Virus record (IMG/VR): IMGVR_UViG_2565956720_000007
Span: 1 to 29,466 of that record
DNA length: 29,466 nt
Origin: a virus
Taxonomy: Duplodnaviria > Heunggongvirae > Uroviricota > Caudoviricetes
Strand: one strand, 5' to 3'
Shown here: one piece after another, positions 2,283-17,117 of the stretch
Layout of the letters: each line of letters starts with the position of its first letter
Position numbering within the stretch: position 1 is the stretch's first letter
The notes under the pieces: generated by a model
What the model was told of the DNA's origin: nothing
The model's input: the letters and a program-made list of their open reading frames with translations, nothing else
Databases searched by the model: none
Position numbers and translations under genes: made by a program

Positions 2283-3179
2283 CTATGACTTGCTGTTTTC
2301 AGTAAGAGTCTTATCATCCAAAGAATTTATTCTAGAAATTCTTTTTAACTCATTAAGATAATCAACCTCGTTTTCTAAGAACCAATGAAGAACTTTAGAA
2401 TTGCCAAGTAATTTATTAATATATGACTGGATTATAACGAATTTCAACATATCTGAACCATACTCGGTTTGAAGCTTTTTCGTTTCTTCCGAAGTTGTTG
2501 CCATTTCTTGTTCCAGACGAAGTATGGTTTTTTTTATGTCCTTTTTATAGGGAGTGTTTTTCCCTTTATTTACTATCATCGATGCCGGTGTTGCATCCAA
2601 GATGCTCATTGCAAATTTTTTACTATAATTATCAAAATTAATCATTGTACCGACTGCTTCAATTTGGCGAATTGGCTTCATTTTCCTCAAAACGTCAAAT
2701 GTAGCCTTAGGTATAGGTTTATCAGAAAGTTTCGCAATTACACTTGAATCTATGCCGTTCATCACATTCGCTTTATCTTTTATGGCATCAACAGATATGC
2801 CCAAAGCAGCACTAAGTTTTTCAATTGATACTTTTGCCAGAGACTTAATTATCATTCTATGTTCTTCAACTACATTTATATGATTCACTTGTTTGTTAGG
2901 AGTGAAAGCATCATCTATGCTCGAAAGTATACATGGAGCTTTTTCTATACCTAAGTCTTTTAAAGCCTCAACCCTTAAATGGCCATCAAGTATCTTAGTG
3001 ACATCTTTATCTTTGTCATAGAATACTATTATTGGTTCAATAATACCTAAGCTTTCGATAGAGGTAACTATATGATGATATTTATGGCTTCGCTTTACGT
3101 TTTCTAATAATTCCTTAGATGGAATTAACTTATTAGTTTCCAGGTAAATAAAATTATCGCCAAAACGTATCTGAATCAT
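2283..3179 (-). CDS. ParB/Srx-superfamily (ParB-like, KorB/RepB-like) protein, paralog 2
   Basis: 298-aa ORF; N-terminal region ILDGHLRVEALKDLG resembles the ParB-box arginine-containing motif; start overlaps stop of upstream ParB-like gene (3176-3179). AT-rich. Confidence 0.6.
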   Translation of the reverse strand: MIQIRFGDNFIYLETNKLIPSKELLENVKRSHKYHHIVTSIESLGIIEPIIVFYDKDKDVTKILDGHLRVEALKDLGIEKAPCILSSIDDAFTPNKQVNHINVVEEHRMIIKSLAKVSIEKLSAALGISVDAIKDKANVMNGIDSSVIAKLSDKPIPKATFDVLRKMKPIRQIEAVGTMINFDNYSKKFAMSILDATPASMIVNKGKNTPYKKDIKKTILRLEQEMATTSEETKKLQTEYGSDMLKFVIIQSYINKLLGNSKVLHWFLENEVDYLNELKRISRINSLDDKTLTENSKS

Positions 3180-4072
3180 TTTAATACCTCTTTGTTTACT
3201 GGGGTTAATATCTGAGATGGTAGTTCTGAAAGATTCTCTTGTTCAAGTATATGTTGAAAGCTTTTATTCATCATTATGATGTTAAAAATCTCATTTACTA
3301 TTAGTAGGTTGGTTTTTATGAATTTTGAGTTGTTATAAACAGATTTATGTTCAGCGATACTATTTTCATAAAGCTCAATCAACTCCTCTGCAGTCATCCT
3401 TTTTGATGGTTTGTGATAATAAAATCCGGCTGCTTTTGCACCTTTATTCCCAACTGTTCTTTGATTTAGAATGTGTTTTATCTTTATAATGTCCCGACTT
3501 TTTATTAATTTTTTATCATATGCTTCGGTAAGAATATCTTGTGCTTCCTCAGTTTCACATCTTGCAAATTGCACTGCGAGATACAGAGGCAAATTACCCC
3601 GTTCGACTGCTGAGAGAAGTTTATGCTCTCCCTTATCAAGTAGCATATTAATACTGCTCACCCAGTTCGATGAATATCCAGTAATCTCACTTATTTCGGA
3701 GTCTGAAAGTCCTCTGATTTTCATGTCTTTAATCACCTGTAATAACTCATTAGAACGTGGTCTTCTCCTTGCAATGTTTTCAACTAAACTCATAACGTAA
3801 GCATCTTCTTCTGATACATCTCTTATAATTGCTGGAATAATAGTTTCACCTAATGCAACGAGAGCCTCTATTCTCCCTTGACCACAAATTAAAGCATATT
3901 TGAAATCGCCTTCATCAATAGCTCTTACGCTTATAGGCTTGCTTAATCCTCTTTTTTTTATGCTTTCCTTTATTTCTTCATGCACTACCTTATTTCTTGT
4001 TCGTGGGTTAAGAAATTTTATTTTTGCAATCTCAATTTGAATTATTGGGAATTCATTTTTTTCAGGCAGCAT
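3176..4072 (-). CDS. ParB/Srx-superfamily (ParB-like) protein with HTH, paralog 1
   Basis: 298-aa ORF; ParB N-terminal motifs GQGRIEALVALG and SLVENIARRRPRSNELLQ followed by a helix-turn-helix-like segment; 11-nt overlap with recombinase gene stop, so translationally coupled operon. Confidence 0.65.
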   Translation of the reverse strand: MLPEKNEFPIIQIEIAKIKFLNPRTRNKVVHEEIKESIKKRGLSKPISVRAIDEGDFKYALICGQGRIEALVALGETIIPAIIRDVSEEDAYVMSLVENIARRRPRSNELLQVIKDMKIRGLSDSEISEITGYSSNWVSSINMLLDKGEHKLLSAVERGNLPLYLAVQFARCETEEAQDILTEAYDKKLIKSRDIIKIKHILNQRTVGNKGAKAAGFYYHKPSKRMTAEELIELYENSIAEHKSVYNNSKFIKTNLLIVNEIFNIIMMNKSFQHILEQENLSELPSQILTPVNKEVLK

Positions 4073-5618
4073 ATAGTTCCCTCACTTTCATGCGAGTAAT
4101 AATTTGTAGAAGTTTATCAAGATTATCAAATCTATAGAGATCTAATCGAATGTTGTTTGTTTCCGTCATGCACATTTTATTATATTCGTTTTCAATCTTT
4201 GGTATGATATAAAAATCAAGAGGTGAAATATTTTGTGAATTCATTCGTATAACAATTGTTATGTCTGCTTTCTGTGAGTTATCAAACCGGACTTTCCATC
4301 TAAGTTTACCTGATTTCATATGTATGCATTTAGTAACAAGGACGGAAATTAAAAACTCATCATTGATGTAAAGCATTGGGGCATATTTATACTCGTCTAT
4401 ATGACAGTTGCTTTTTAAAATTTCACCCTTAAAATCCTCAATTATCTCTGAGTAAAATGATCTTAGTGCTTCATTTATTTTGAGATAGCTGTAATCATGT
4501 TCTGGCTTATAACCAATCAAAGTATATGCTCTTAAAAGACCACCAAATCGGGTTCTATAAACAGAAGATGAAGGGCCTGTATCATCTTCATCAATGATAA
4601 AGCCTGATAGTTTTCCATTAGATTCTAATTTTTGTTTTAGTTTTTCTAATAGATCTTCATTAGTCAAATGAATGGATCGGAGCTGAATTATTTCTTGAGC
4701 TTTATTGTATTTTTTCTTTGAAATAATAGGTTTATATGCCTTGTCACATCTAACCCATTCATGTTTGGGGTTTTTTACAAGCCTACTTTTTAATTTAGAT
4801 GAGGTTTTGTTATATATGTTGTTTCCAATATATTTTTCATTTGTCAAAATTTGATGTATTTTTGCACGAGTCCATAATGTACCATTTTCTGCAGGTATGT
4901 TCTGTTCATTTAATCTCTCAGCAATAATGAATTCTGGGACGTTATTATCTATAAAGAGATCATATATTCTATTTACAATTTTTATTTCATTTTTTGGTCC
5001 CGGAATTAATATTACCCTATCTGTTTGAATACTCTTTCTTTTGCGGAAACTCAATATTTCTTTAGCTATGCCATTTTCGTCTACTAAAAGACGTCTCAGC
5101 CCATAACCAGCCATACCGCCTTGATGATAACCAAGCTTTATTAAATTTACTTGCCCTATAAATACCTTTTCAGATAGATTCCTGCTGTGATATGCAGCAC
5201 TAGATCTTTTTATATTCAGTATAACAGAGGACTCTAAAGGGAAATCTTTAGTGGGTATAGGTTCGGAACAATATATAAGATCTACACCATTTCTCTCAAA
5301 TAGAAAGGAATAATATGCCGCTTCATCACTATTTTGAAAACGACCAAAACGGCTCACATCATAAAATAATACAGCCTGTATATCTATTTTCTTTTGTTCT
5401 ACATCGCTAAGTAACTGCTGCAAAGAATGCCTGCCTACGATACTGACTCCGCTCTTACCTGAATCATCGTAGGTATAAGCGATTTCCATATTGTTCTTTT
5501 CAGCATAATCTTTGATATATTCGGACTGATTATGTAAAGAATATTGCTGATGGTCGGTAGACATCCTCAAGTACTGCGCGACCCTAACTCTATGATTTTT
5601 GTCATTTTCGCTAGCCAT
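4062..5618 (-). CDS. Large serine recombinase (resolvase/invertase catalytic domain plus recombinase domain)
   Basis: 518-aa ORF; N-terminal catalytic motif VAQYLRMSTDHQQYSLHNQ (Y-x-R-x-S...Q of serine recombinases); recombinase-domain-like middle region; first gene of a three-gene minus-strand operon. Confidence 0.8.
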   Translation of the reverse strand: MASENDKNHRVRVAQYLRMSTDHQQYSLHNQSEYIKDYAEKNNMEIAYTYDDSGKSGVSIVGRHSLQQLLSDVEQKKIDIQAVLFYDVSRFGRFQNSDEAAYYSFLFERNGVDLIYCSEPIPTKDFPLESSVILNIKRSSAAYHSRNLSEKVFIGQVNLIKLGYHQGGMAGYGLRRLLVDENGIAKEILSFRKRKSIQTDRVILIPGPKNEIKIVNRIYDLFIDNNVPEFIIAERLNEQNIPAENGTLWTRAKIHQILTNEKYIGNNIYNKTSSKLKSRLVKNPKHEWVRCDKAYKPIISKKKYNKAQEIIQLRSIHLTNEDLLEKLKQKLESNGKLSGFIIDEDDTGPSSSVYRTRFGGLLRAYTLIGYKPEHDYSYLKINEALRSFYSEIIEDFKGEILKSNCHIDEYKYAPMLYINDEFLISVLVTKCIHMKSGKLRWKVRFDNSQKADITIVIRMNSQNISPLDFYIIPKIENEYNKMCMTETNNIRLDLYRFDNLDKLLQIITRMKVRELYAA

Positions 5619-5900: not shown

Positions 5901-7130
5901 TTATGCGGCAATAACTTTGCATTTTTGAGACGAAACATAGTCACTCCACCATTGCATGAGAACCACCCGTTCAGTGAGATACTCTGCACGATTGTAGGCT
6001 GCAATTATTTCATCTTTCTTCGAGTGGGCAAGGGCGGCTTCTAAGACATCAGTCCTAAACTTGCCAGACTCCTCAGCAGCCGTTCTAGCAATGGATCGCA
6101 TACCGTGAGCTACAAGCTCACCTCCGAAACCCATACGGATTATGGCCGCATTAGCTGTTTGTTCATGCATGTGATTGAGTGGAGCTTTGATACTGGGGAA
6201 CACCCACTCTCTATGCCCGCTGATGACTTTCATTAAATCCAAAACTCGCAAAGCTTCTTTGCTCAGTGGAACTTTGTGAGGCTTCTTCATTTTCATAAAC
6301 TCCGCCGGGATGTTCCACATGCCAGTTTCAATATCAATATCTGACCATCTTGTGCGAACAGCTTCACCTGGGCGAACCCATGTGAGAAGTTGCCACTCAA
6401 TCAGTAGCCTTGTTTCCAAACGGATAGAAGCATTGTTTAGAGCAACCAAGAAGCGAGGGAGTTCGGAAGGGGGTAATGCTGGCATATTCTGTTTTTTTGG
6501 CTTGCTGAACCGTTGCCCCAGGTTGTCTGCCGGGTTGAATTCTATGAGTTCTTCTGTTGCTGCATAGCGGAAAATTTCATTCAGGCGGGATATGATGCGG
6601 CGAAGTGTTTCAAGGACACCTCGTTTTTCTATGGGTTCTAAATGCTGTTTAAGCATTTTAGGGCGAATCTCCTTAATTGGGGTATCACCCAATGTGGAAA
6701 AGATATTTCTCTCTAGGCTTCGCCAGATGTCGTTAGCATGATCTTGGGAGATGCCTGACGTTTTGACTTTCTCATCAAGCCACTTCTTGGCTACTGCTTG
6801 AAATGTATGTTCCGTGGCATCTTTCAGTGCATTGGCTTTTTGGTTGTTATGAACTTGGGGGTCTATACCATTTGTAAGCAACGACAAGTATTCATCACGT
6901 AAAGCTCGTGCCTTCGCAAGTGTAAGGTGAGGATAGGTTCCTAAGCTCACCTTAGTTCGCTTTTTGGTCACAGGCACTGCATATCTGAAATACCAATTTT
7001 TCTTCCCTCCCTTCGCCAGGGGAGCGATTCGCAACAGCAAACCATCGCCGTCAAAAAGGTTAACCTCTTTTTCGGCAGGTTTGGTGCTTTTGATTTCAGT
7101 GTCAGTGAGCTTCTTAGCGATTTTGGCCAT
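5901..7130 (-). CDS. P4-family tyrosine integrase (CP4-57 IntA-like)
   Basis: Start placed at internal ATG 7128-7130 giving the typical N-terminus MAKIAKKLTDTEIKSTKPAEKEVNLFDGDGLLLRI (arm-binding domain of P4-type integrases); C-terminal catalytic region with conserved R..HxxR..Y context. The longer ORF to 7211 is probably N-terminal overextension. Confidence 0.85.
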   Translation of the reverse strand: MAKIAKKLTDTEIKSTKPAEKEVNLFDGDGLLLRIAPLAKGGKKNWYFRYAVPVTKKRTKVSLGTYPHLTLAKARALRDEYLSLLTNGIDPQVHNNQKANALKDATEHTFQAVAKKWLDEKVKTSGISQDHANDIWRSLERNIFSTLGDTPIKEIRPKMLKQHLEPIEKRGVLETLRRIISRLNEIFRYAATEELIEFNPADNLGQRFSKPKKQNMPALPPSELPRFLVALNNASIRLETRLLIEWQLLTWVRPGEAVRTRWSDIDIETGMWNIPAEFMKMKKPHKVPLSKEALRVLDLMKVISGHREWVFPSIKAPLNHMHEQTANAAIIRMGFGGELVAHGMRSIARTAAEESGKFRTDVLEAALAHSKKDEIIAAYNRAEYLTERVVLMQWWSDYVSSQKCKVIAA

Positions 7131-7228
7131 GTTTGGGACCCTCGATTTTAGGACCCATCTTCGTGGGTCCCATTCAGGGTGCCATAACTCGTAGTTCTCA
7201 GCAATTCTCACTAGACTACAATAGACGT

Positions 7229-7458: not shown

Positions 7459-8484
7459 TTAGCGATGCCAGTTGAGGTTATGAAGTGGATTTTTGGTAAC
7501 GGCATCTTCCAGATGATCCGGTGCAAAATGGGCATAAATCATGGTCATTTTAATATCAGCGTGCCCTAAAATATCCCTCAATACTAAAATGTTTCCGCCG
7601 TTCATCATAAAGTGGCTGGCGAAAGTGTGGCGCAGAACGTGGGTACATTGACCTTCAGGTAGTTCAATTCCAGCTCGTTTTACCGCACGCTCAAAAGCCT
7701 TTCGGCATGGTGTGAATAACTTTCCTCTGTTTTTGGGTAATTCTTCATACAGTTCCTGAGAAATAGGAACAGTTCGGTTTTTCTTTCCTTTTGTTTTGGT
7801 ATAGGTAATTCGATACTTTGATATCTGGTTACCTTGCAGGTTTTCGGCTTCGCTCCATCTTGCCCCGGTTGCCAGACAAATCTTGGCAATCATTAGCAGA
7901 CTGGGACTTTGAGATTCAGCACAAGCGTCAAGCAGGCGTTTGATTTCATCAGCAGCAAGGAACGCCAGTTCACCCTCTGCAATTTTGAAAGTTGGCAGAC
8001 CGGCGAGAGGGTTGGGTGCAGACCAATGTCCCAGCTTTTTCAGTGTGCCAAAAACTGAGGATAGGTTACGTTGTTCAAGGTTCACCGTTCTGGGCTTAAC
8101 TGGTGACATGAGCACACCATCTTCGTTTTTGACCTCACCTTTTAATCTGGCTTCCCGGTATTTTGTGAAATCACCTGCTGTCAATTCAGAAGCGATGGGA
8201 TCGCCAAGCCCATTACAAATGATTTTTAACTTAGCCATTAATCGCTTAGGGTCAGCGAGTGTCTGACCGTACAGGGAATACCATTGCTCAATCACTTCTG
8301 ACAGTTGTCTCCGATCTTCCTTTTCTCCCAGCCAAGGTTTCTTGTTTACCTCGTCCATGGTGAAATTCTCAAACGCAATGGCTTCGCCTTTCGTCGCAAA
8401 TTGTTTGCGTACGCGTTTGCCATCTCGCCCGTTTGGGTAGCATTCACATAACCACTTTCCGTTCGGCTGTTTTCTGATGGTCAT
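7459..8484 (-). CDS. int: P2/186-type phage tyrosine integrase
   Basis: 341 aa; strong similarity to recalled P2 Int, e.g. ATGARWSEAENL and HVLRHTFASHFMMNGGNILVLRDILGHADIKMTMIYAHFAP catalytic region. Confidence 0.9.
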   Translation of the reverse strand: MTIRKQPNGKWLCECYPNGRDGKRVRKQFATKGEAIAFENFTMDEVNKKPWLGEKEDRRQLSEVIEQWYSLYGQTLADPKRLMAKLKIICNGLGDPIASELTAGDFTKYREARLKGEVKNEDGVLMSPVKPRTVNLEQRNLSSVFGTLKKLGHWSAPNPLAGLPTFKIAEGELAFLAADEIKRLLDACAESQSPSLLMIAKICLATGARWSEAENLQGNQISKYRITYTKTKGKKNRTVPISQELYEELPKNRGKLFTPCRKAFERAVKRAGIELPEGQCTHVLRHTFASHFMMNGGNILVLRDILGHADIKMTMIYAHFAPDHLEDAVTKNPLHNLNWHR

Positions 8485-8485
8485 A

Positions 8486-9118
8486 TCAAAGGCTCTTAAT
8501 GATTTTCAGTGCGCGGCCTATTACCTTAATGTCATCCAGTTCGCACTCAAACGATGAATCATCCTGATGCACTACTAATCTGTTTCCCGGGAGTCGTGTC
8601 AATTTTACAATGCTTTTTATCCCGTCGATGTCCACTAACCACGTACCATTTACTGGTGGTGTTTGGTTGCGATCTATTAAATAAGAATCACCAGAAGTAG
8701 TCACCAGCAGCAGGTTGCTTGAGTCTGAGGGGAGTATGCTGCTATCAATGATTGCTTTTCCAGCATCGACCAATAAACCACCGTTGAGAGTTGCCTTTTC
8801 AATTTCAGGAGATACAAGCTCAGAAAGAGGTTTAACCTTGCTGGGGTTCACGGAATTGATATTTTTTTTAGGGTCAATGTTTGAACCTGGCTCGCCCTGT
8901 CCGGTGGTTAGCCATAGTAAAGAAACTCCTGTTTCCAAGGCGCACTGAATCACCCATTCTGCGGGAAAGCTATCTCTTAAGTATCTGTTTGCCATAGTGC
9001 TTTTTGATGCACCTAAGTGATCGCAAAGTTGCTGTCTGGACTTGAAATCATAGGCTGCCATTAGTCTATGGATAGCCTCTCTTCCCCCTGTATTCTCGCC
9101 AGCTTTTACCTGTATCAT
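8486..9118 (-). CDS. cI: 186-type CI-like prophage repressor (HTH N-terminal domain)
   Basis: 210 aa; HTH-like segment LGASKSTMANRYLR and CALETGVSLLWLTTGQGE; located directly upstream of and co-oriented with int, divergent from apl-like gene, as in phage 186. Confidence 0.7.
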   Translation of the reverse strand: MIQVKAGENTGGREAIHRLMAAYDFKSRQQLCDHLGASKSTMANRYLRDSFPAEWVIQCALETGVSLLWLTTGQGEPGSNIDPKKNINSVNPSKVKPLSELVSPEIEKATLNGGLLVDAGKAIIDSSILPSDSSNLLLVTTSGDSYLIDRNQTPPVNGTWLVDIDGIKSIVKLTRLPGNRLVVHQDDSSFECELDDIKVIGRALKIIKSL

Positions 9119-9518: not shown

Positions 9519-10028
9519 ATGTTTGATTACAAAATTTCCAAACATCCGCATTTTGATGAAGCCTGTAGAACTTTTGCACTACGTCACAATATGGCGAAGC
9601 TGGCAGAACGTGCAGGAATGAATGTTCAGACACTGAGAAACAAACTCAACCCAGATCAACCGCATCAGCTCACCGCACCAGAAATCTGGCTGCTTACCGA
9701 TCTGACTGAAGATTCAACGCTGGTAGATGGTTTTCTGGCTCAGATTCACTGCCTGCCATGCGTACCGATTAATGAGGTGGCAAAAGAGAAACTGCCACAT
9801 TACGTCATGAGTGCAACCGCAGAGATCGGGCGTGTTGCTGCAGGTGCGGTATCTGGCGATGTAAAAACCAGTGCAGGTCGTCGTGATGCTATCAGCAGCA
9901 TTAACTCTGTAACACGACTGATGGCGCTGGCTGCTGTTTCATTGCAGGCCCGTTTACAGGTTAACCCTGCGATGGTGAGTGCAGTTGATACCGTGACTGG
10001 CCTCGGTGCTTCATTCGGTTTGCTGTGA
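9519..10028 (+). CDS. cII: 186 CII-like transcriptional activator
   Basis: 169 aa (the size I recall for 186 CII), position after apl, RBS aaggtgg upstream of ATG. Confidence 0.55.
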   Translation: MFDYKISKHPHFDEACRTFALRHNMAKLAERAGMNVQTLRNKLNPDQPHQLTAPEIWLLTDLTEDSTLVDGFLAQIHCLPCVPINEVAKEKLPHYVMSATAEIGRVAAGAVSGDVKTSAGRRDAISSINSVTRLMALAAVSLQARLQVNPAMVSAVDTVTGLGASFGLL

Positions 10029-11319: not shown

Positions 11320-11618
11320 CAAGGGCAGTGCGTATCCATCAATTAAAAATTGCACCTAAGTATTTCAACGCTGTGGTTGCAGGTCAAAAGACGGCTGAAC
11401 TTCGTAAAGACGATCGTGGCTATAAAGTTGGTGATGTTCTTTCTCTTTGCGAATGGAAGCATGGCGTATTTACGGGTAGGGAATGGGCCGCTGTTATCTC
11501 TCATGTGTTTCCGGTTAATGACGTCATGGCAGTTTCAGAACAATGGGTGATGCTATCAATTCGCCCATTAACCCCATTAGAAGCTTTAGGATATGTTATT
11601 GCCGGAGGTGCTGTATGA
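11316..11618 (+). CDS. Small ASCH/DUF3850-like domain protein
   Basis: 100 aa from ATG 11316 with ggagg RBS; [36 protein letters not shown] resembles ASCH-like small phage proteins; flanked by identical 16-nt junctions (see findings). Confidence 0.5.
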
Positions 11619-12472
11619 GCACCATCCTGAAATGGGCGGGAAATAAAACCGCCATTATGCCAGAACTGAAAAAACACCTTCCAGCTGGCCCGCGACTGGT
11701 TGAACCTTTCGCGGGTTCCTGTGCGGTGATGATGGAGACGGATTATCCAAGCTATCTGGTTGCGGATATTAATCCTGATTTAATCAACCTCTATAAAAAG
11801 GTTGCCGCTGATTGTGAATCGTTTATATCTCGCGCCAGAGTTTTATTTGAGATCGCAAACAGGGAGGTAGCTTATTACAACATAAGGCAGGAGTTTAATT
11901 ACTCAACTGAAATTACTGATTTCATGAAAGCGGTATATTTCCTGTATCTCAATCGTCACGGTTACCGTGGTTTATGTCGCTATAACAAGAGCGGGCATTT
12001 CAATATTCCCTACGGTAATTATAAAAATCCGTATTTCCCTGAAAAAGAAATTCGCGCATTTGCAGAAAAAGCCCAGCGGGCAACGTTTATCTGCGCCAGC
12101 TTTGATGAAACGCTGGCGATGTTGAAGGCGGGGGATGTGGTGTATTGCGATCCGCCTTATGACGGTACGTTTTCCGGCTATCACACTGATGGTTTCACTG
12201 AAGATGACCAGTATCACCTGGCATCCGTTCTTGAACATCGATCATCAGAAGGTCATCCAGTCATTGTTTCTAACAGTGACACATCCCTGATTCGTTCGCT
12301 GTATCGCAATTTTACTCACCACTATATCAAGGTAAAACGCAGCATCGGTGTGGCAGCTGGCGAGTGTAAATCAGCAACAGAAATCATCGCTGTTTCCGGG
12401 CCGCGCTGCTGGGTGGGATTTGATCCTTCGCGTGGCGTGGATAGTTCTGCCGTGTACGGAGTGCGTGCATGA
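11615..12472 (+). CDS. Dam-family DNA N6-adenine methyltransferase
   Basis: Motifs KWAGNK near N-terminus and DPPY catalytic motif; start ATG 11615 with ggagg RBS, overlapping upstream stop (ATGA). Confidence 0.85.
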
Positions 12473-14883
12473 GCCATGCTGATATGAACAACTGCAGCGG
12501 CTTTAACGAGGTCGCAGCAGCATTCTCATGGAGCAGCCCGAAAAAGGCCATTAACCCTTATCTGGACCCGGCGGAAGTTGCGCCGGTTTCTGCGCTTTCA
12601 AACCTGATCACTCTGTACGCTGCCGATAACGAGCAGGAACAGCTGCGCCGTGAGGCGCTGAGTGATCAGGTCTGGGAGCGTTATTTCTTTAATGAATCCC
12701 GTGATCCTGTCCAGCGCGAAATCGAGCAGGATAAGCTCATTAGTCGGGCAAAGCTGGCGCATGAGCAGCAGCGTTTTAATCCGGATATGGTCATTCTGGC
12801 GGACGTCAACGCCCAGCCTTCCCATATCAGCAAGCCGCTGATGCAACGTATTGAATACTTCAGCAGTCTGGGCAGGCCAAAGGCTTATTCCCGCTATTTG
12901 CGTGAGACGATTAAGCCATGTCTGGAACGACTGGAGCATGTACGCGAGAGTCAGCTATCCACTTCTTTTCGCTTTATGGCAAGCCATGAAGGGCTGGACG
13001 GCCTGCTGATCCTGCCTGAAATGAGTCAGGATCAGGTGAAGCGCCTGTCTACCCTTGTTGCCGCGCATATGAGCATGTGCCTTGATGCAGCTTGTGGTGA
13101 TTTGTATGCCACCGATGACGTTAAGCCAGAAGAAATCCGCAAGACATGGGAAAAGGTGGCAGCGGAAACCCTGCGTCTGGATGTAATCCCTCCTGCGTTT
13201 GAGCAACTCCGTCGGAAAAGAAACCGCCGTAAACCCGTGCCCTATGAACTCATTCCGGGTTCGCTGGCGCGTATGTTGTGCGCCGACTGGTGGTATCGGA
13301 AATTATGGAAGATGCGTTGCGAATGGCGGGAAGAGCAGTTGCGTGCTGTCTGCCTGGTCAGCAAAAAAGCATCTCCCTATGTCAGCTATGAAGCCGTGAT
13401 GCATAAACGTGAGCAGCGCCGTAAGTCGCTGGAGTTTTTCCGTTCTCATGAACTGGTGAACGAAGACGGCGACACGCTGGACATGGAGGATGTGGTAAAC
13501 GCCAGCAGCAGCAACCCGGCGCATCGCCGCAATGAGATGATGGCCTGTGTTAAAGGTCTGGAGCTTATCGCGGAAATGCGCGGTGACTGCGCCGTTTTCT
13601 ACACCATCACCTGTCCGTCACGTTTCCATTCCACGCTCAATAACGGCAGACCAAACCCGACCTGGACAAACGCGACGGTAAGACAAAGCAGCGATTATCT
13701 GGTCGGCATGTTTGCTGCATTTCGTAAGGCGATGCACAAAGCCGGGTTGCGCTGGTATGGCGTGCGGGTGGCTGAGCCGCATCATGACGGCACAGTTCAC
13801 TGGCACCTGTTGTGTTTCATGCGCAAAAAAGACCGCCGTGCCATCACTGCATTACTGCGTAAGTTTGCCATCCGTGAAGACCGCGAGGAGCTGGGCAATA
13901 ACACTGGGCCGCGCTTTAAGTCTGAGTTGATTAACCCGCGCAAAGGAACGCCAACAAGCTACGTCGCGAAATACATCAGTAAGAACATTGACGGGCGTGG
14001 TCTGGCTGGCGAGATCAGCAAGGAAACGGGGAAATCCCTGCGTGATAATGCTGAATACGTTAATGCCTGGGCGTCTCTGCATCGTGTTCAGCAATTCCGC
14101 TTCTTTGGCATTCCGGGGCGTCAGGCTTACCGTGAACTGCGATTGCTGGCTGGTCAGGCGGCAAGGCAACAGGGGGACAAAAAAGCAGGTGCGCCGGTAC
14201 TGGATAACCCACGCCTTGATGCCATCCTGGCTGCTGCTGATGCTGGTTGTTTTGCCACCTACATCATGAAGCAGGGCGGCGTACTGGTTCCCCGCAAATA
14301 TCACCTCATCAGAACCGCTTATGAAATCAACGAAGAGCCGACCGCCTATGGCGATCACGGCATTCGTATCTATGGCATCTGGTCACCTATTGCAGAGGGC
14401 AAGATCTGCACTCATGCCGTGAAGTGGAAAATGGTTCGTAAGGCCGTTGATGTTCAGGAGGCGGCAGCCGACCAGGGCGCTTGCGCCCCTTGGACTCGTG
14501 GCAATAACTGTCCCCTTGCTGAAAATTTGTACCAACAAGGGAAAGACAAATCAGCTGATGGAGATACCAGAACGGATATCACCCGCATGGATGACAAGGA
14601 GTTGCACGATTACCTGCACAGTATGAGCAAAAAAGAGCGCCGGGAACTGGCAGCAAGGTTACGCCTGGTGAAACCGAAACGGCGTAAAGACTACAAACAG
14701 CGAATTACAGACCATCAGCGACTGCAGCTCGTGTATGAACTGAAGTCCAGGGGATTTGATGGCAGCGAGAAAGAGGTCGATTTACTGCTTCGCGGCGGCA
14801 GTATTCCGTCAGGAGCAGGCCTGCGTATCTTCTATCGGAACCAGCGTTTGCAGGAAGATGATAAGTGGCGAAACCTGTATTAA
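12469..14883 (+). CDS. A: P2 gpA-like rolling-circle replication initiation protein
   Basis: 804 aa; HUH-type motif HWHLLCF and catalytic tyrosine motif YVAKYISK typical of P2 A/phiX174 A family. Confidence 0.85.
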
Positions 14884-14977
14884 TTACGCGGGTTAACAAT
14901 TCGTGCTCTTAATAATACCAGGCATATCAGGCTGATGAGCGTAAAAAAACGTTTTACATCAGTAAGATTATTATATA

Positions 14978-14993
14978 CTGTAAATATAAACAG
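14978..14993 (+). promoter_or_regulatory. LexA (SOS) box CTGTAAATATAAACAG upstream of Tum/DinI-like module
   Basis: Exact CTGT-N8-ACAG dyad with AT-rich spacer, 43 bp upstream of the ATG at 15036, in an AT-rich promoter-like region. Confidence 0.6.
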
Positions 14994-15035
14994 TGGTTAT
15001 GTATACAGTATTGCTTTGGTGTCATAGGAGGAAAG

Positions 15036-15224
15036 ATGCAGGACTATTTTTTGGAGTCTTTGAAGCTCCAGCGCATTGATTTTTTTCTTAAGCTTGTAGC
15101 GGCTAGTGAGTGTAGTGATGAAGAGAAGGGGCTGGCCCTGCAGTGGGTTTCTGAACTGACAGATGAACTCATGGCAAAAATCAGAACCCACGAATACAAC
15201 CGCTCAATGGATGTCATCAGCTGA
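15036..15224 (+). CDS. Small protein, possible N-terminal part of a Tum-like SOS-inducible antirepressor
   Basis: 62 aa, strong RBS aggagg 6 nt upstream of ATG; downstream of LexA box; overlaps the frame carrying the DinI-like ORF. Confidence 0.5.
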   Translation: MQDYFLESLKLQRIDFFLKLVAASECSDEEKGLALQWVSELTDELMAKIRTHEYNRSMDVIS

Positions 15225-15234
15225 GGTGACTTTT

Positions 15235-15468
15235 ATGCGCATTGAAATAATGATCGATAAAGAGCAGAAGATTAGCCAGTCTACACTGGACGCCCTTGAA
15301 TCCGAGCTTTACCGCAATCTGCGCCCCCTGTATCCCAAAACGGTAATTCGTATCCGCAAAGGTAGCTCTAACGGTGTGGAACTGACCGGACTGCAACTGG
15401 ACGAAGAAAGAAAACAAGTGATGAAAATTATGCAGAAGGTGTGGGAAGACGACAGCTGGCTGCATTAA
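15235..15468 (+). CDS. DinI-family protein (DinI-like domain as in 186 Tum C-terminus)
   Basis: 77 aa from ATG 15235; MRIEIMIDK...IRIRKGSSNGVELTGL...VMKIMQKVWEDDSWL matches recalled DinI (MRIEVTI...ETWESADDWF). Confidence 0.7.
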   Translation: MRIEIMIDKEQKISQSTLDALESELYRNLRPLYPKTVIRIRKGSSNGVELTGLQLDEERKQVMKIMQKVWEDDSWLH

Positions 15469-15603
15469 GAAACGTTGCTGGCGTCTGAACTTGTTTCTGG
15501 CGTCAGCAAGGTTGAACAACGAGCCCTTGCGAGGCGTTAGCTCTGTAGTGCATGTCTATGCCGCATGAGATCGCATGATCGTTTGAGGATCGTTTTTGCT
15601 AAG

Positions 15604-15630
15604 GCCCGCCAGGAGTGGCGGGATTTTGCT
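15604..15630 (+). terminator. Candidate rho-independent terminator
   Basis: 6-bp GC stem cccgcc/ggcggg with 6-nt loop followed by attttgctt. Confidence 0.35.
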
Positions 15631-15673
15631 TATGTCATGCAGGCGCATGAAAACCGCTACATAAAGCGGGCAG

Positions 15674-15692
15674 GCGTGGCGGGGATACGAGC
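15674..15692 (+). other. Candidate cos site (P2/186-type cohesive end)
   Basis: ggcgtggcggggatacgag: first 13 nt identical to the recalled 186 cohesive end GGCGTGGCGGGGAAAGCAT (P2: GGCGAGGCGGGGAAAGCAC); lies between the A/tum region and the portal side as expected for a prophage. Confidence 0.5.
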
Positions 15693-15804
15693 GCGCGCTA
15701 TGTGGTATAGGCCTTAATTTAGTATGATTCAAGAGTGTCGGGATCTTTGCGCTGATCAGTCCTAAGTTATATGATAAGAAAAATGCATAAAAAAGGTTCG
15801 GTTC

Positions 15805-16779
15805 ATGGGGTTAGGATTAAAAGACGCTATTGTGCATACCGCTGCGTTTCATCAAAAGGAAACTAATGAATTGCAATTGCCAAACAACCATTGGCATCCT
15901 GGTTTTATCACTGTCTTAGCAGCTTACGTGAATCATCACAAAATTACCGAAGATAACTGCGTTTTGTCATGCCCTGACTATATGCGAGCTATCAATTTAC
16001 ATGGTGCTTTATGGGGCGAGGATCAGTATCAACAGGAACGTGTAAATGTTGGAAGAAATTACAGTTTGGTTACAGCATTAACCAATGTTGAAGCTGTTGA
16101 CGTTGCCACTGGTAGTATTAACAGTTGTGTAAGGCAGTTAACATTCCCTGATCGTGATCCGAGAGATTATCCCAAGGGACTTACAGATCTAACTCATGTT
16201 ATAGGTGAGCTTCACGATAACGTTTGGTCGCATGGAAAATCAACGGGTTTTTCTTTTGCACAACGTTCGGCTGTACCCCACACACAAAGAAAAGAGCACT
16301 ATTTAGAATTTTCTTTGGCGGACTGTGGGTTAGGATTTCTCCGAGAATTGCGGCGAGCTGGTATACCCGGAATTGAGACTCACCAGGATGCGATCGCATG
16401 GTGTATTCAAGAGGGACATTCATCTAAGCATGCTGATTTGCAGGATGATTGGGCACAGCAACTTCCCCAGGATTTTATTGGGGGTAGTATGTTTGGTCAC
16501 GGGGTTTCGGTCAAAGAAAAAGATAATAATCATCAAGGGCTTGGGTTATATCACTTGATGAAATTGATAAAAACATATAATGGGGAATTGCAACTGGCTT
16601 CAGGAAATGTATGCTTAGAAGCAATAGGTGATGAAGTGAGCTATACTGAATTACGTACTAAATGGCCGGGTGTAGCAATTTCTTGCCGTTTTAAGATTCA
16701 TGAACTGGCAGTCGATAAAGATAGCGAAGAAAATGACCCTCAGCTTATGGAAATAATGCGGGCGTTAGGAGGAGAGTAA
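15805..16779 (+). CDS. GHKL-superfamily (histidine-kinase-like) ATPase with uncharacterised N-terminal domain; accessory gene, candidate defence/partner-switching kinase
   Basis: 324 aa; N-box-like ELHDNVWSHG, G1 box DCGLGF, G2 box GHG...QGLGLYHL in correct order and spacing for a HATPase_c fold; about 125 N-terminal residues of no recognisable family; lower GC than flanking phage genes. Confidence 0.6.
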   Translation: MGLGLKDAIVHTAAFHQKETNELQLPNNHWHPGFITVLAAYVNHHKITEDNCVLSCPDYMRAINLHGALWGEDQYQQERVNVGRNYSLVTALTNVEAVDVATGSINSCVRQLTFPDRDPRDYPKGLTDLTHVIGELHDNVWSHGKSTGFSFAQRSAVPHTQRKEHYLEFSLADCGLGFLRELRRAGIPGIETHQDAIAWCIQEGHSSKHADLQDDWAQQLPQDFIGGSMFGHGVSVKEKDNNHQGLGLYHLMKLIKTYNGELQLASGNVCLEAIGDEVSYTELRTKWPGVAISCRFKIHELAVDKDSEENDPQLMEIMRALGGE

Positions 16780-17117
16780 TGAACAAAATCGCATACAAGT
16801 TACCCGAGGGTGACCTGGCTTCGCGCAATCAGGCTATCCCCCAACGACACAAGATTGAAGGGTTCATTAAAGAAGGGTATACCGTAGATTTGGACCTGAG
16901 CGGTGTTTATTCAATTTCAGAATCATACTCTGATGAAATCTTTGGTGTTTTGGTAGTGAAATTCGGTGTAACCAAAGTTTTGAGTCAGGTTAAGGTTCGC
17001 AATGCATCCCCTTCAATTTTAAAAAGTATTGCAAAAGTGATCCAACGTCGTAGCAATGAAGTAGCATCAAAAAAGGTTCATTCCGTTGGATTTGATGGTT
17101 TATACGCCGTTTGTTAA
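16779..17117 (+). CDS. STAS-like (DUF4325-like, anti-sigma-antagonist-like) small protein, partner of the GHKL ATPase
   Basis: 112 aa; start overlaps upstream stop (TAATG); VDLDLSGVYSISESYSDEIFGVLVVKFG resembles the STAS-like DUF4325 signature as I recall it. Confidence 0.5.
   Translation: MNKIAYKLPEGDLASRNQAIPQRHKIEGFIKEGYTVDLDLSGVYSISESYSDEIFGVLVVKFGVTKVLSQVKVRNASPSILKSIAKVIQRRSNEVASKKVHSVGFDGLYAVC

Follow-up and report, generated by a model that had tools for sequence, protein, structure and literature searches.

A predicted LexA-controlled operon with separate tumA-like and DinI-like genes in a Fels-2-like prophage

A described counterpart of the locus analysed here is the tum gene of phage 186, the product of which is controlled by LexA, binds the CI repressor and blocks its binding to the operators (Shearwin et al. 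1998, as cited in PMC3121763). According to the Discussion of the latter paper, tum is divided into two parts in Fels-2 and PSP3, the upstream half being the antirepressor, and the upstream gene of PSP3 is reported there as an antirepressor second-hand, on the basis of a personal communication. In the annotation of 186, tum is a single gene of 146 aa with the promoter p95, a LexA site and several internal starts, one of which, a GTG, gives the DinI-like part alone, with the same boundary as the split considered here. The PSP3 annotation describes tumA as similar to the 5' end of 186 tum and related to UV induction of the prophage, and tumB as similar to dinI and to the 3' end of 186 tum. In the annotation of Fels-2 from Salmonella LT2 the corresponding genes are STM2728 (62 aa) and STM2726.1, the latter named 'DinI family protein; similar to TumB of PsP3'. 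The passage cites Bunny et al. 2002, a paper whose title makes Fels-2 responsible for the lethality of lexA null mutants. A literature search for TumA and TumB returned unrelated papers only.

The whole stretch of DNA analysed (the window, 29,466 nt) contains a P2/186-like prophage, and DNA searches show the region to be 96-97% identical to Fels-2 and to related Peduoviridae of Escherichia, Klebsiella and Salmonella. The prophage genes comprise an integrase (7459-8484, minus strand), a 186-type CI immunity repressor (8486-9118, minus strand; Pfam Phage_CI_repr, PF07022, and Phage_CI_C, PF16452), a CII-like activator (9519-10028), a Dam-like methylase (11543-12472), the replication gene A (12469-14883; Pfam Phage_GPA, E 1.6e-127) and, from 17164 onwards, the portal, terminase and head genes. 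The SOS module lies directly downstream of gene A, which ends at 14883, and 186, PSP3 and Fels-2 share this synteny. The repressor is 33% identical to 186 CI (E 3e-35) and has, according to Pfam, the HTH and C-terminal domains of 186 CI without an S24 self-cleavage domain. Therefore, an antirepressor is needed for SOS induction, as in 186, and this repressor is its presumed target. To the left of the prophage integrase, the segment 68-7211 looks like a separate mobile island, with the C-terminal specificity domain of a Type ISP restriction enzyme (68-1048), two ParB/RepB-like genes (2283-4072), a large serine recombinase (4062-5618) and a second tyrosine integrase (5901-7211). No match to Rfam was obtained anywhere in the window.

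We are highly confident that the region downstream of gene A represents the SOS operon of a Fels-2-like prophage (P2/186 family, Peduoviridae), in which the antirepressor and the DinI-like protein are encoded by separate genes and which would act through the mechanism set out below. The split tumA/tumB SOS operon is thus an already known arrangement, and it is intact and under selection. The LexA-box-controlled Tum/DinI-like module of the original prediction is supported by the SOS box, by homology to both halves of Tum and by the P2/186-like nature of the prophage.

The tumA-like gene (ORF1; 15036-15224, plus strand) encodes a predicted antirepressor of 62 aa and is preceded by the ribosome-binding site AGGAGG (15026-15031) 4 nt ahead of its ATG, in agreement with the 62-aa ORF and strong ribosome-binding site noted originally. 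Its product is 98% identical to Fels-2 STM2728, with a single residue different. Profile and phmmer comparisons, unlike BLASTP, show homology between ORF1 and the N-terminal half of Tum from 186. Neither 186 Tum nor PSP3 TumA could be aligned with ORF1 by pairwise BLASTP, but phmmer among seven syntenic candidates linked ORF1 to ESSI2 (E 2e-16), to the YenM 'tum protein' (6e-7) and to the 186 Tum N-terminus (2e-5). An HMM of the close ORF1 family gives the 186 Tum N-terminus 17.9 bits, a score reached by none of 2000 shuffles, and a diverse profile of 35 ORF1 sequences gives 186 Tum 33.9-35.9 bits over residues 5-43, with 33.9 bits for the full-length protein (0 of 5000 shuffles, the best at 10.2). 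The ORF1 family and the Tum N-terminus have the motif LxRI(D/E)LIARLxxxxxCxxxD(K/R)ExALxWIAEL in common. The score of the ORF1-family profile against PSP3 TumA is marginal (3.2 bits, reached by 99 of 5000 shuffles), and phmmer among the syntenic candidates links PSP3 TumA to 186 and ENT90.

Homologs of ORF1 occur in many genera at a length of about 62 aa, none of them fused to DinI. They number 484, and the best 120 of these all share the C-terminal end, the longer ones among the 120 being due to upstream start-codon calls only. ORF1 belongs to phrog_698 (E 3.6e-38), a family labelled 'unknown function'. Pfam and NCBIfam hold no family for ORF1, a PDB sequence search with it gave no match, and PADLOC matched neither ORF1 nor the DinI-like protein. 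An AlphaFold model of ORF1 is a helical hairpin of two helices (pLDDT 90.5), with which a BFVD fold search gave no match at E <= 0.001, the fold being too simple to inform. In RefSeq the family goes by the name 'hypothetical protein' and is occasionally mislabelled 'levan regulatory protein'. The homology to the N-terminal domain of 186 Tum would allow phrog_698 to be annotated as a TumA-like antirepressor, which would fill an annotation gap. A tumA-like gene stands alone behind a LexA box, without a DinI gene, in the P2-like Erwinia phage ENT90, Yersinia phage vB_YenM_06.16-2 and ESSI2 (ESSI2_ev015). As these phages have only the tumA-like gene, the two halves of Tum appear to act as independent modules.

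The second gene (tumB; 15235-15468, plus strand) encodes a DinI-like protein of 77 aa that is 100% identical to Fels-2 STM2726.1, and has its own ribosome-binding site GAGGTGA (15223-15229), which stands 5 nt ahead of the ATG at 15235 and shares bases with the stop codon of the tumA-like gene. The original prediction placed a DinI-family ORF after ORF1, which holds, and gave it an overlap of about 60 nt in a frame open from 15163. Such an ORF is indeed present in the mechanical ORF list (15163-15468, 101 aa, 62 nt of overlap with ORF1; Pfam DinI PF06183, E 1.3e-22), but the real gene starts at 15235. The Pfam match begins at residue 38 of the 101-aa version, to which the extension adds nothing, and the 77-aa protein covers positions 1-63 of the 63 in the profile (PF06183, E 6.6e-23; 81.3 bits against a cut-off of 24.2). 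The predicted true start is the ATG at 15235, 10 nt past the ORF1 stop and without gene overlap, because residue 1 of the protein read from it aligns with residue 1 of the solved DinI structure (PDB 1ghh), because the Fels-2 coding sequence is identical and because the upstream open frame is not conserved. The internal start of 186 Tum (VKVNITLDK...) and the first residue of the DinI-like protein (MRIEIMIDK...) also coincide exactly in the alignment.

In sequence comparison E. coli DinI and the C-terminal half of 186 Tum are both homologous to the DinI-like protein. The DinI-like protein is 41% identical to residues 71-145 of 186 Tum (E 3e-24), in agreement with the original prediction, in which the C-terminal part of Tum is described as DinI-like, and it matches positions 71-148 of the 151 in phrog_189. 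Its score against the NCBIfam DinI equivalog NF007893 is 42.7 bits, below the cut-off of 111, and the gene is classed on its sequence as a DinI-like paralogue and not as an orthologue of the host DinI.

Upstream of ORF1 lies a candidate LexA operator, SOS box 1 (TACTGTAAATATAAACAGTG, 14976-14995, plus strand), the core of which is the perfect CTGT-N8-ACAG site at 14978-14993 that had been seen from the beginning. It is the sole such site in the window, where the bare 8-base motif is expected 0.4 times and is present at least once in 35 of 100 shuffles. The full 20-mer TACTGTAAATATAAACAGTG has three mismatches to the consensus TACTGTATATATATACAGTA (17/20), a match as good as which was found in none of 100 shuffles. 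Moreover, each of the ten syntenic tum/tumA genes examined is preceded by a TACTGT-N8-ACAGT box, although the flanks are unrelated in sequence. The single box of the original prediction is nevertheless incomplete, as it misses a second, overlapping box (SOS box 2, CAGTGGTTATGTATACAGTA, 14991-15010, plus strand) with 15/20 consensus matches. The two boxes are offset by 15 bp at their starts and overlap by 5 bp. The right half-site of the second is perfect and the left one weak (GTG replaces CTG), and the second box is kept in Fels-2 and MLG42 (15-16/20). The operator at 14976-15010 is thus predicted to consist of two overlapping SOS boxes, like the colicin and pesticin operators, and LexA would bind to it.

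The promoter of the operon would be the analogue of p95 in 186. A candidate -35 element, TTTACA (14953-14958, plus strand), read from the sequence by analogy with 186, is located 17 nt upstream of TACTGT (14976-81), the would-be -10. In 186 the annotated -10 is formed by the first six bases of the LexA site, and the same placement is presumed here. A generic sigma-70 promoter scan of 14850-15850 gave no site at its thresholds.

The two coding sequences are separated by the tumA-like stop codon (15222-24), a 10-nt gap and the ribosome-binding site and ATG of the second gene, and do not make up one Tum reading frame. They are in different frames, the DinI frame is open 65 nt into ORF1, and their combined length (62 + 77 = 139 aa, close to the ~140 aa pointed out originally) approximates the 146 aa of 186 Tum. 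These features favour a pseudogenised tum, i.e. a ~140-aa ancestor broken by an indel in 15163-15224, with a prophage no longer responsive to SOS, as was proposed alongside a genuine two-protein arrangement in the original prediction. This is highly improbable in view of how the module is maintained elsewhere. The same layout is found in Fels-2, the phage reportedly linked to lexA-null lethality, two ORFs are likewise found in PSP3, and the two-gene module occurs in 1125 of the 5426 complete genomes of E. coli, where the pair goes by the labels 'hypothetical protein | DinI-like family protein', as well as in many other enterobacteria. Separate ORFs are thus the norm, the very outcome that the original prediction had named as refuting it. 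A profile search of 1.84 billion protein representatives yielded no ORF1-DinI fusion among its 86 matches, the few longer of which are N-terminal extensions or chimeric reads. Selection was assessed at nine loci with a synonymous divergence of ~0.5 to >1, and dN/dS amounted to 0.03-0.12 for ORF1 and 0.02-0.12 for the DinI-like ORF, that is, around 0.05-0.1 for both at a dS near 1, which points to strong purifying selection. At these loci the genes are 10, 11, 12 or 13 nt apart, each of the three relative frames and each of the three stop codons is represented, and every homolog has a purine-rich Shine-Dalgarno sequence in the gap. With gaps in all three frames and both genes under selection, the relative frame is uninformative and a recent frameshift is excluded. 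The DinI-like ORF, with its own ribosome-binding site and a start aligned to residue 1 of DinI, also speaks against a broken gene, and the two-protein arrangement therefore proved to be the right alternative.

The open frame across the end of ORF1, present as a +1 frame in both the window and Fels-2, and the several Tum isoforms made by 186 could also be accommodated by programmed +1 frameshifting within the 62-nt overlap, giving a fused Tum-like protein beside the two separate products. This can be given very little credence and was rejected, as the overlap is not conserved. Among relatives, the stretch left open ahead of the DinI start codon measures between 0 and 65 nt; STEC383 and MLG42 show no overlap (0 nt), and in SEN8 and SopEPhi it comes to 31 nt and is in a different frame. 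In E. coli STEC383, which shares the relative frame of the window, a stop codon precedes the DinI ATG by 6 nt, and this tells against the broken gene as well. The frame open back to 15163 is, from these comparisons, to be read as accidental. Furthermore, no slippery motif was identified, and the hairpin at the junction (15213-15230, over the DinI ribosome-binding site), considered as a coupling element, was dropped, being no more stable than shuffled sequence (z -1.0) and not conserved. In one relative, Escherichia phage 500465-1 (481-1113 of the record), both genes of the module look damaged: ORF1 contains an altered internal stretch (GWLCSGVSELT), and the DinI-like coding sequence lacks its first residues and is frameshifted at the C-terminus. 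The damage represents either sequencing errors or a genuinely decayed copy.

A different alternative is that the operon is LexA-controlled but ORF1 is not an antirepressor, in which case the module would do no more than modulate the host SOS response through the DinI-like protein, and induction, if any, would take place by another route. The lack of a Pfam, NCBIfam or PADLOC family for ORF1 and the label of phrog_698 are compatible with this, as is the fact that the literature examined gave no experiment on the exact ORF1 protein family. It is unlikely, however, as ORF1 is homologous to that part of Tum which lies outside the DinI-like half, and as ENT90, YenM_06.16-2 and ESSI2 retain the tumA-like gene behind a LexA box in the absence of a DinI gene. 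The missing self-cleavage domain of the CI repressor and the lexA null lethality reportedly ascribed to Fels-2 weigh in the same direction.

In the favoured reading, that of an intact operon with a TumA-like antirepressor and a separate DinI-like protein, LexA would in the undamaged cell occupy the double operator at 14976-15010, over the presumed -10, and keep the operon off. Upon DNA damage RecA would become active, LexA would cleave itself and the operon would be transcribed. The 62-aa TumA-like protein would then bind the 186-type CI repressor and stop it from binding its operators, with CI off the lytic promoter would fire, and prophage induction would follow. The separately translated 77-aa DinI-like protein (TumB) probably acts on RecA filaments and would thereby tune the SOS signal. 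From its sequence, the module would place the prophage in the SOS-inducible 186/Fels-2 type, not in the non-inducible P2 type, with a switch that looks intact. The importance of this beyond annotation is small. The colicin-type double SOS box adds a small testable detail on how firmly induction is restrained: the double box suggests very tight repression of the antirepressor operon, and if both boxes were cooperatively filled, induction in this lineage would come later than in 186 and be closer to all-or-none.

Directly 3' of the DinI-like stop codon, RNA folding gives a stable hairpin without a U-run (15471-15513, plus strand), which may act as a stabiliser or as a partial terminator; in 186 the corresponding site is occupied by t95a, a partial terminator. 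The operon likely ends at a terminator-like hairpin found by a terminator scan (CCCGCCAG-GAGT-GGCGGG followed by the U-run ATTTTGCTTA; 15605-15632, plus strand), the stem of which (hairpin 15605-15622) is kept in Fels-2, vB_EcoM-813R9 and 500465-1, with a variable loop. The terminator-like hairpin is contained in a non-coding block of about 150 nt (~15550-15698) that is kept in Fels-2, 813R9 and 500465-1 and ends exactly where variable cargo starts. In the window, two cargo genes (15805-17117) are located between the SOS operon and the portal gene Q; the first encodes a protein of 324 aa (phrog_3364, with a faint HATPase_c match) and the second a protein of 112 aa (DUF4325 / STAS-like, with a weak match to part of DrmA). 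Relatives have a TIR-domain protein (500465-1) or a Hypoth_Ymh protein (813R9) at this site. Given the different genes at the cargo site in related phages, the pair may be an anti-phage defence pair.

Outside the phages, the closest likeness concerns the operator. The double-box region is identical at 34 of 37 positions to the colicin Y operator and similar to the colicin R and pesticin operators, which have the same geometry with boxes offset by 15 bp. Colicin operators of this double form bind two LexA dimers and are very tightly repressed (PMC2994835). The operators of colicins Y and R and of pesticin are located upstream of bacteriocin genes on small mobilizable plasmids, whereas the LexA site considered here is a predicted one and precedes a prophage antirepressor operon. 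A full-text literature search with the colicin operator sequence string gave no match. Tentatively, and with less than even confidence, it may be proposed that Fels-2-type prophages use a colicin-type double operator on their antirepressor, that the near-identity of the operators reflects an exchange of SOS modules between Col plasmids and P2-like phages, and that fused, in-frame-stop and out-of-frame forms of tum constitute a natural fusion-fission series.

Among prophages, the dinI-gfoA/gftA operons of Gifsy-1, -2 and -3 are, as here, LexA-controlled and combine a DinI homologue with a small antirepressor, but in these lambdoid phages dinI comes first, the order thus being reversed, and the antirepressor is of an unrelated family. 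Phage 186 has its tum gene at the same genome position, a LexA operator over the -10 and a CI repressor of the same type, and both halves of its Tum are homologous to the proteins encoded here. It differs in joining these halves in one polypeptide through a linker of ~25 residues and in carrying orf97 after tum. In PSP3, as here, two genes lie behind a LexA box downstream of gene A, and its TumB (77 aa) is close to the DinI-like protein. However, tumA (60 aa) and tumB of PSP3 are in the same frame, with a stop codon and 3 nt between them, unlike in the window, and its TumA is marginally similar to ORF1, which fits a different cognate repressor. Both 186 and PSP3 have a single SOS box, in contrast to the double box of the window and Fels-2. 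Fels-2 itself shows the same order of gene A, SOS operator, 62-aa ORF, 10-nt gap and 77-aa DinI-like ORF, with the same double SOS box, an ORF1 that is one residue off and an identical DinI-like protein; the difference lies downstream: in Fels-2 a homologue of orf97 (STM2726, 243 aa), absent from the window, follows the DinI-like gene and precedes the conserved terminator block, and the cargo further on is another.
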